Shown here piece after piece: positions 60,088 to 61,509 of a DNA stretch of 64,000 bases. Source of the stretch: Escherichia coli. Its GTDB lineage: Bacteria > Pseudomonadota > Gammaproteobacteria > Enterobacterales > Enterobacteriaceae. The notes beneath the pieces are model-generated. The model worked only from the letters and a program-made list of their open reading frames with translations. It ran no database searches and was not told where the DNA came from. Both the position numbers and the translations under genes were made by a program. Where the stretch lies: the NCBI RefSeq assembly GCF_016903815.1, contig NZ_CP069973.1; one strand, written 5' to 3'. Within the stretch, counting starts at the first letter, position 1. Each line of letters opens with the position of its first letter.

Positions 60088-61509
60088 TTAATCTTGATGA
60101 ACTATGTTTTTCATAAGGAACATACACTCGTTGATGCTTTTAAGGTATTTTCTCATTTCTGAGGATGTTTTGTCGTAATCGAGCATAAAATTATTAAGTT
60201 CTTTATACACATCATTATTTAGCTTTACATTGTCGCGGACTAAAGTTTGTATCAATGGTATCAAAATTTCGAAACGGGACGGTTTGTCATCAATACTTGC
60301 CAGGGTTTTGAATACTCCTGTGTATCTGTAACCTAAGTGCTTATTGACAAGTTGAGTGTTCCATCGACCAGGCATAATATCTTCACAGCACAAATTTTTT
60401 ATCCTGGTATTAGTGAACGATGTTCCAAATATGTTGCTTTTTTTAATGAAGAGGTTATTTATTTCTCCATTCGAAAAGATGGTGTTTGATAAGTCACTTT
60501 CAAAACATGATATATTGGATAATACACAACCAAAATAATACCCATATGAAAGATTGCTCTTTTCTATTGTTATATTTGATAGCAATAGTTTATTTATATT
60601 AATATTATGGGTAATCAAATACTGAATTTTTTGCTCGTTAAGTTCATACATCTCCAGTGATTTATTATAGGGTAATAAAAGTATAAATTCCTTTATATTA
60701 TCTCCGCAGTAAGAAAAGACAACGCCAAATTTATTGGTGACCATGTTTTCAGTTGAGCAGTAAGCTGATTTTTCTATTAACCGACTGGGCACGCTTTTAA
60801 ATAAAGATGATTTTTCACATAGTTGTGAATATGCCGCATTGCTAGTTTTAAAATTCCGCCATGTTATTTCCTGGTTATCATCTGTCGATGAGGCGGGGAT
60901 TTTCAAGCATTGTTCATTGTATAGCTCAGGATAAATATTTTTTTTAATTAGATTTTTGATTTCCTTATTAAAATAGCTTTTTTTCTTGTCTATTGCACTG
61001 TATTTAGCGTTTTGTGACTTCTCCTGATGATAAAAAAATGACTGGAGATGTTTGCAGGCGTCATAAAATATCTCAGGAATATATAGCTGCGGGTATATTT
61101 CCTGGTTGAAATTTGCTTTTAAAAACTTAATGAATTTTTCATAGCATTCTTGATATGTTTTAATTTCTTCAGAAAGACATTCGCTTGTTCTGTCATCAAA
61201 AACATCCAATCTAAGTAATGTGATTTCTTTGTGTTTAAAAAAAGAAAATTGAACTGTATGTTCTATGAGTTTACATCTATAAAAATGCGCATCTCTTAGA
61301 TGAGTGTATTGAAAAAAATGATGAAGGACTGGAGATGGTTTAGGCAAATCCTGGCTTCTAAAAAAGTCATCAAACAAAATTAAGAACTCTGTTTTATACT
61401 CGCAAAACACTTTTACTAACTCATTTTGTCTTGTTTTATTTATTATTACATCGTCTGCTATATTTGATTTATAAAGACAATGTGGCGAAGTTGAGATACC
61501 ATCTGTCAT
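60088..61509 (-). CDS. pentapeptide-repeat protein resembling EspX-family type III secretion effectors
   Basis: 473-aa low-GC ORF; pentapeptide-like run SNISCFESDLSNTIFSNGEINNLFIKKSNIFGTSFTNTRIKNL; location matches where I recall espX1 in O157:H7. Confidence 0.6.
   Translation of the reverse strand: MTDGISTSPHCLYKSNIADDVIINKTRQNELVKVFCEYKTEFLILFDDFFRSQDLPKPSPVLHHFFQYTHLRDAHFYRCKLIEHTVQFSFFKHKEITLLRLDVFDDRTSECLSEEIKTYQECYEKFIKFLKANFNQEIYPQLYIPEIFYDACKHLQSFFYHQEKSQNAKYSAIDKKKSYFNKEIKNLIKKNIYPELYNEQCLKIPASSTDDNQEITWRNFKTSNAAYSQLCEKSSLFKSVPSRLIEKSAYCSTENMVTNKFGVVFSYCGDNIKEFILLLPYNKSLEMYELNEQKIQYLITHNININKLLLSNITIEKSNLSYGYYFGCVLSNISCFESDLSNTIFSNGEINNLFIKKSNIFGTSFTNTRIKNLCCEDIMPGRWNTQLVNKHLGYRYTGVFKTLASIDDKPSRFEILIPLIQTLVRDNVKLNNDVYKELNNFMLDYDKTSSEMRKYLKSINECMFLMKNIVHQD

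Follow-up and report, generated by a model that had tools for sequence, protein, structure and literature searches.

We analysed a 64,000-nucleotide stretch of an Escherichia coli chromosome (assembly GCF_016903815.1, contig NZ_CP069973.1), referred to here as the window, in which an open reading frame (ORF) of 473 codons next to rpsT corresponds to espX1, a gene named for a type III secretion system (T3SS) effector. The ORF runs from ATG to stop on the minus strand exactly where the initial annotation had placed it and is preceded by a Shine-Dalgarno motif (Table 1). It lies 300 bp upstream of a four-gene chaperone-usher fimbrial operon. Because all of these genes are on the minus strand, espX1 and the operon are arranged in tandem, and not convergently as had been described. 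Together they form a low-GC island between nhaR and rpsT, which is O-island 1 in O157:H7. The low G+C content noted initially was borne out: espX1 has 31% G+C (0.31 at third codon positions, GC3), while rpsT and ribF have 0.47-0.53 and the window as a whole averages 0.50; the gene sits in a low-GC trough at ~59750-61750. The remainder of the 64-kb window is ordinary E. coli core chromosome, from prfC to ribF and spanning the origin of the record, and no T3SS genes were found in it.

A 2.4-kb query around the ORF matched strain 7/2 of E. coli, which comes from human faeces in Sweden (NZ_CP023820.1), with 100% DNA identity, and the RefSeq annotation of that strain names the matching gene espX1. 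The public collection contains the exact 473-aa protein under the name "MULTISPECIES: type III secretion system effector EspX1". EspX1 of O157:H7 (ECs0025/Z0025) is also 473 aa long and aligns without gaps over the full length, with 430 of 473 residues identical (91%) and 43 substitutions relative to the window allele; the curated Sakai record for ECs_0025 reads "T3SS effector-like protein EspX". The order nhaR, four fimbrial genes, espX1, rpsT, including strands, is identical in 7/2, O157 TT12B and Sakai, in agreement with the statement in the initial annotation that espX1 of O157:H7 stands next to rpsT. Judged by sequence and position, the ORF is the ortholog of O157:H7 espX1 in a different allelic form, and thus a known, already named gene. 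As the protein is EspX1 itself, we did not see the joint absence of EspX similarity and of a profile match that had been listed as speaking against the initial identification.

Table 1. Features of the espX1 locus (positions in the window)
Feature	Position	Strand	Basis and remarks
Four-gene chaperone-usher fimbrial operon	55086..59787	minus	Annotation and ORFs; GC 0.37-0.41; 3' of espX1
espX1 coding sequence	60088..61509	minus	ATG-to-stop ORF, 473 codons/aa
C-terminal helical domain (predicted)	60100..60357	minus	aa ~385-470; five predicted helices; AlphaFold2 pLDDT mostly 70-81
Pentapeptide-repeat beta-helix region (predicted)	60370..60624	minus	aa ~296-380; about four 20-residue coils
N-terminal orphan region, ~295 aa	60624..61509	minus	No recognisable domain; AlphaFold2 pLDDT 21-46
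Short N-terminal pentapeptide-like stretch (tentative)	61195..61329	minus	aa 61-105; period-5 run of 8 hydrophobic positions (aa 66-101)
Shine-Dalgarno motif AAGGA	61516..61520	minus	6 nt before the espX1 ATG
AT-rich intergenic region, rpsT terminator to espX1	61521..61932	minus	GC 0.29-0.35
Terminator-like hairpin 3' of rpsT	61933..61962	both	Terminator-like sites; separates rpsT transcription from espX1

We surveyed the distribution of the gene relative to injectisome genes. Of the 5426 complete E. coli genomes, 3613, about two thirds, contained the espX1 region (at least 80% coverage). Co-occurrence was read by megablast after appending a marker gene to the espX1 query, both from how many places matched in all and from how many matched within each record. 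The markers were escN, the LEE (locus of enterocyte effacement) ATPase gene, taken from Sakai, and eivC, the ATPase gene of ETT2, a second and cryptic T3SS of E. coli. With escN added, 6135 places matched instead of 5438, which puts the LEE-positive genomes at about 697 (13%); with eivC added, the number rose to 6746, about 1308 genomes (24%). Strain 7/2 gave a single place in both searches and therefore has neither escN nor eivC at megablast sensitivity; on this evidence the host strain here differs from O157:H7, and the proposed check for LEE genes elsewhere in the genome came back negative for escN. In an evenly spaced sample of 59 rows (40 espX1-positive and 19 espX1-negative genomes), six of the positives carried escN, 13 carried eivC, and 25 carried neither. 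Overall, ~80-85% of espX1-positive genomes have no escN, and around two thirds have no eivC. Contrary to the first option offered in the initial annotation, espX1 is no marker of a LEE-positive or pathogenic lineage. Its other option, an orphan effector, fits the genome context of strain 7/2, but the word "effector" is only a candidate label in the case of EspX1. Consistent with a broad distribution, espX1 has been reported in uropathogenic (UPEC), extended-spectrum beta-lactamase-producing (ESBL), enterotoxigenic (ETEC) and environmental E. coli isolates and is enriched in commensal bovine isolates (PMC5422975).

Sequence evolution indicated that the gene is maintained in strains of this kind. 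Among five espX1 alleles, the ratio of nonsynonymous to synonymous substitution rates (dN/dS) was 0.29-0.43 in 10 out of 10 pairs, and all five were exactly 473 codons long at synonymous divergences (dS) of 0.09-0.17 and up to 6% nucleotide divergence. Values were no different in pairs where both strains were without escN and eivC (7/2 vs. 1223, 0.31; 7/2 vs. CFSAN061763, 0.29; 1223 vs. 13C1079T, 0.30). Because such pairs have dN/dS near 0.3 and intact 473-codon ORFs, we conclude that espX1 is kept open under moderate, or loose, purifying selection in strains that have no injectisome. The E. albertii ortholog is likewise full length, at 68% identity. We also encountered damaged copies: insertion sequence (IS) elements interrupt espX1 in ATCC 8739 (IS1), Z142-6, 2015C-3163 and 2018-11-3CC, BL21 has a partial copy, and NCTC9100 has a frameshift. 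Since such lesions recur, the constraint can only be modest. The dS of espX1 between strains (0.09-0.17) was higher than that of the flanking fimbrial genes, rpsT and ribF (0.02-0.10), which suggests a different recombination history or a mutation bias of the 31%-GC segment.

We then considered what kind of protein the gene encodes. EspX1 starts with MTDGISTSPHCLYKSN and has no signal peptide, as originally stated, and no membrane segment (highest 19-residue Kyte-Doolittle mean, 1.18). It contains 15 consecutive hydrophobic residues at 5-residue spacing (aa 305-375), a run reached by two out of 2000 shuffles; periods of 3, 4, 6 and 7 gave runs of at most 6. The pentapeptide-like repeats of the initial annotation are thus real but occupy the C-terminal third (aa ~300-380) and not the centre. 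Standard profile hidden Markov models (HMMs) barely register them. The Pfam model Pentapeptide_4 was not significant (i-Evalues 0.095 and 2.9), and the NCBIfam Qnr models matched at E values of 2e-4 to 1.4e-3 with 19-21 bits versus cut-offs of 240-490. The best match in a PDB sequence search was EfsQnr (2w7z, E=0.0037).

A full-length AlphaFold2 model, built from nine near-identical sequences, was unusable, with a mean predicted local distance difference test (pLDDT) score of 40. Restricting the model to aa 240-473 gave an overall pLDDT of 67. The score was 73-87 over aa ~289-379, where one strand follows another at a spacing of 20 residues. We predict, with moderate confidence given the shallow alignment, a quadrilateral, right-handed beta-helix of about four coils followed by five helices. 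Searching the PDB with this model using Foldseek gave a list of matches that were nearly all pentapeptide beta-helices, among them EfsQnr, NleL, SopA, MfpA, QnrB1, the luminal domains of SV2, and Rfr23, the last superposing with a root-mean-square deviation (rmsd) of 1.8 A over 92 columns. In AFDB50, a publicly available model of an EspX1 ortholog superposed at a template modelling (TM) score of 0.84 and rmsd of 3.2 A, followed by E. coli proteins annotated "putative type III effector" or pentapeptide (E 1e-6 to 1e-4) and then by generic pentapeptide proteins. The N-terminal ~295 aa had no match in Pfam, NCBIfam, PADLOC or PDB beyond weak Qnr similarity, and an exhaustive profile search returned Escherichia copies and fragments only. 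Within this region, the pentapeptide-like stretch (Table 1) coincides with weak QnrS/QnrAS matches at aa 66-154; we regard it as tentative because the strands predicted there, at aa 75-105, have pLDDT below 40. Overall, EspX1 is a soluble, three-part protein, with an orphan N-terminal region, a predicted pentapeptide beta-helix and a predicted five-helix C-terminal domain.

Relatives of EspX1 are few. A word-indexed search of 5.8 billion proteins found E. coli and Shigella copies and one 68%-identical E. albertii protein only. The exhaustive profile search, run against 1.84 billion cluster representatives, recovered a single full-length cluster (E. coli/E. albertii), numerous fragments, and four weak matches to generic pentapeptide proteins (E 8e-6 to 8e-4); no EspX paralog was found at E<=1e-3. 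At the level of sequence, EspX1 thus looks like a near-orphan restricted to Escherichia and Shigella, with no homolog detectable beyond them. One candidate for a distant homolog of its N terminus, a 199-aa protein from an assembly of the Logan read archive (P0050), was set aside as what looks like a converted copy: it reads as EspX1 with pervasive A-to-G changes (K, N, E, D and I to R, G, S and V) and probably arose artefactually, from reads that had been chemically converted or were laden with errors. An origin in a defence system or phage was not supported either, as PADLOC gave no match for EspX1 and PHROGs a single weak and uninformative one (E=0.0036).

We compared EspX1 directly with two paralogs from Sakai, EspX4 and EspX5. 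EspX4 (YjbI-type, ECs5021) and EspX5 (ECs5048), which we take to be YjcF, resemble EspX1 in being products of AT-rich E. coli genes, in having pentapeptide repeats, and in being listed as T3SS "effector-like". The likeness does not extend much further. The two scored a BLASTP E=0.7 and an hhalign probability of 0.4% (EspX4), and a BLASTP E=0.001, mostly over the repeat region, with an hhalign probability of 20% (EspX5). The domains flanking their repeats are unrelated to those of EspX1. EspX4 matches the NCBIfam "SopA family protein" model (E=0) and a HECT-effector model (7e-20), and EspX5 matches the PipB2 (5e-10) and PipB (7e-8) models, whereas EspX1 matches none of these. The BLASTP comparison suggested initially therefore has a split outcome, in that the protein is EspX1 itself but its similarity to EspX4 and EspX5 is marginal. 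On these comparisons, what unites the EspX "family" is the type of repeat, and homology among its members is not demonstrable.

NleL (EspX7 of O157:H7) and Salmonella SopA are type III effectors that combine a pentapeptide beta-helix with a HECT-like E3 ligase. Their structures (NleL, 3naw and 3sqv; SopA, 5jw7 and 2qza) aligned to the C-terminal EspX1 model with Foldseek E values of 2e-3 to 6e-2, TM-scores of 0.15-0.41 and rmsd above 8 A. There was no significant sequence similarity in a PDB profile search, in which SopA had E=0.6 and NleL was not listed. EspX1 is also shorter (473 versus 782 aa), and sequence searches of Pfam, NCBIfam and the PDB found no HECT-like domain in it; the beta-helix is followed by only ~90 helical residues. 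All that connects EspX1 with proven effectors is membership in one fold class. The best sequence-level matches to its repeats are the gyrase-binding DNA mimics Qnr, MfpA and EfsQnr, which belong to the same fold class, and EfsQnr (2w7z_B) superposes on the EspX1 model with an rmsd of 2.4 A over 97 columns. These proteins differ in having 8-10 coils, versus about four in EspX1, and EspX1 has ~390 aa of unrelated sequence in addition. Nothing suggests a gyrase-protecting role for EspX1.

The name EspX1 was reportedly coined by Tobe et al. in 2006. We found no translocation assay or secretion experiment on the protein in a literature search that ran without the primary paper of 2006. In the part of the Ogura 2007 table of 32 confirmed non-LEE O157 effectors that was accessible, ECs0025 is missing; loci are ordered from ECs0061 (EspY1) and include EspX2 (ECs0876) and EspX7 (ECs1560) (PMC2323221). 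EspX7, which has been studied well, was renamed NleL; it combines a pentapeptide beta-helix with HECT-like E3 ligase activity (PMC3013003, PMC3082576). A transcriptome paper lists EspX1 among "putative" effector genes (PMC5931665). A yeast screen of ~200 effectors included EspX1, which was not expressed, and thus yielded no EspX1 data (PMC5599653 supplement). Transcription of the gene itself has been seen in O157 on lettuce, with differential expression (PMC6891304). "ECS0025" in PMC3175480, considered as a mention of the espX1 locus, proved to be the name of a small RNA.

Taken together, we view espX1 as a known accessory gene in the low-GC nhaR-rpsT island, here in a strain that has neither the LEE nor the ETT2 ATPase gene at megablast sensitivity, and in which delivery by an injectisome would be impossible. 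EspX1 would instead act inside the bacterium, its beta-helix serving as a scaffold whose faces bind a partner, either protein or nucleic acid, in the manner of other pentapeptide-repeat proteins, and its N- and C-terminal domains supplying specificity. We consider it fairly probable that EspX1 is not injected here and most likely works as such an intracellular scaffold. A bolder proposition is that EspX1 is not an injectisome effector at all, and is an Escherichia-specific cytoplasmic beta-helix protein that is T3SS-independent and selected in commensal and extraintestinal strains; we take this as a serious possibility that falls short of probable. The "type III effector" name would be a homology-based candidate label of 2006 that spread through annotation pipelines and virulence-gene databases.

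Several observations weigh against a role that is independent of injectisomes. Every one of the six sampled LEE-positive genomes has espX1, and none of the 19 espX1-negative genomes has escN or eivC, although this co-occurrence may simply reflect phylogroup. The dN/dS between the window allele and O157 is 0.31 for espX1, three- to six-fold above the 0.05-0.11 of three neighbouring fimbrial genes, and espX1 was damaged in six of ~70 espX1-carrying records listed in three evenly spaced samples. The first 25 residues include 4 Ile, 3 Ser, 2 Thr and 2 Asn, a composition that is compatible with a type III signal but not diagnostic of one. Leaving the paper of 2006 aside, the literature found does not directly address secretion of EspX1 by experiment. 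The intracellular scaffold role, for its part, is suggested by fold class only.

The alternative that survives best, which we nevertheless judge unlikely, is that EspX1 is a genuine LEE effector. Strains without LEE, 7/2 among them, would then have orphan copies that persist through inertia or as a standing reservoir of use once LEE is gained. E. albertii usually carries LEE, and its ortholog shares 68% identity with EspX1. The co-occurrence in all six LEE-positive sampled genomes, the beta-helix fold shared with NleL and SopA and the Ser/Thr/Ile-rich N terminus are as this reading would have it. Candidate naming with the EspX group also favours it, since EspX2 and EspX7/NleL are given as confirmed effectors (PMC2323221, PMC3082576). 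However, most carriers have no escN, and dN/dS is ~0.3 both between LEE-negative strains and versus O157, which neutral orphans would not show. Similarity to EspX4, EspX5, SopA and NleL is not significant beyond the generic repeat. EspX1 does not appear in the accessible part of the confirmed-effector table (PMC2323221), and no chaperone-like gene lies beside espX1, whose flanking genes are fimbrial ones and rpsT.

Another reading makes espX1 the leftover of an island gained by horizontal transfer, silenced, without function and in the course of decay; we find it quite improbable. Its very low G+C content would be typical of H-NS-silenced DNA, and the recurrent IS insertions, frameshift and partial copy, together with a dN/dS above that of its neighbours, point in the same direction. 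Decay is hard to reconcile with 473 codons in five out of five alleles at up to 6% divergence, with a dN/dS near 0.3 and not 1, with an E. albertii ortholog that is still full length, or with transcription and differential expression in O157 (PMC6891304).

Export of EspX1 by ETT2 or by the flagellar export apparatus seems very improbable to us. Nearly all E. coli carry flagellar export genes. In the sample, eivC was seen only in espX1-positive genomes (13 of 40 vs. 0 of 19), and ETT2 may have effectors of its own according to a review (PMC7358347). Against this, about two thirds of espX1-positive genomes, 7/2 included, have no eivC, the co-occurrence is what shared phylogroup structure would produce, and our literature search turned up no experimental report of export by either apparatus.

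The fimbrial operon offered a further candidate partner. The two share one low-GC island, and the gap separating espX1 from the major-subunit gene showed no minus-strand terminator-like site. Population data separated them. The complete operon is present in only 1194 genomes versus 3613 with the espX1 region. Some 2400 genomes keep espX1 although their match to the 4.7-kb fimbrial query stops after 2304 bases. The deletion in these genomes (window ~57390..59900) takes the major subunit, the chaperone and the N terminus of the usher and ends ~13 bp into the espX1-proximal spacer; in strain 13C1079T, which has it, espX1 is annotated as intact. espX1 is independent of the fimbrial operon. A role as an accessory or regulatory component of the operon, for which the shared strand, the 300-bp gap and the common island could be cited, is therefore most improbable, as the gene outlives the operon, differs from it in GC (0.31 vs. 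0.37-0.41) and dN/dS (0.31 vs. 0.05-0.11), and has a fold that is not known from any fimbrial regulator.

The practical consequence concerns interpretation. Because about two thirds of genomes have espX1, most of them without an injectisome ATPase gene, an espX1 match in a genome says nothing about pathotype and is no evidence of a type III secretion pathotype. Many surveillance papers (ESBL, UPEC, ETEC, environmental) score espX1 as a "type III secretion effector" virulence gene. If EspX1 is indeed T3SS-independent, this routine scoring as a "T3SS effector virulence gene" would amount to a systematic mis-annotation in genomic surveillance. The gene as such has little discovery value, having been named, catalogued and annotated since 2006, and is ordinary in this context.

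Upstream of espX1, transcription is set apart from that of rpsT by the terminator-like hairpin, which is also where genomes without the island cease to match (query position 2035). The AT-rich spacer between the hairpin and espX1 has sigma-70-like sites on the minus strand at 61630..61602 and 61574..61546, and the count of promoter-like sites there is not above that in shuffles; espX1 presumably has its own promoter within this spacer. An Rfam scan of the flanks gave a SAM-V riboswitch match in the spacer at 61602..61667, on the plus strand opposite espX1; at 32.1 bits versus a gathering score of 41 (E=0.012) it is sub-threshold and most likely due to chance.

The gap between nhaR and rpsT (55050..61935) is a replacement hotspot. 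Strain Iso00225 has a GH31 hydrolase (glycosidase) and a major facilitator superfamily (MFS) transporter there instead. In K-12 the match to the espX1 query is confined to the final 573 bases, nearest rpsT, and the gap presumably has IS1. The fourth fimbrial gene (55086..56045, minus strand), a likely adhesin annotated as "hypothetical protein" or "fimbrial family protein", is intact here, whereas its counterparts in O157:H7 TT12B and Sakai (ECs_0019) are pseudogenes with a frameshift.

Elsewhere in the window, a sharp GC trough (0.36) at 52250..53000, between dnaJ and nhaA, holds the mokC/hokC type I toxin locus (52179..52331, minus strand), a known element unrelated to espX1. Two IS elements lie in the core chromosome: IS1397 of the IS3 family (22125..23473), between a LysR-regulated oxidoreductase cluster and ettA, and IS200C (34245..34703), between creD and arcA.

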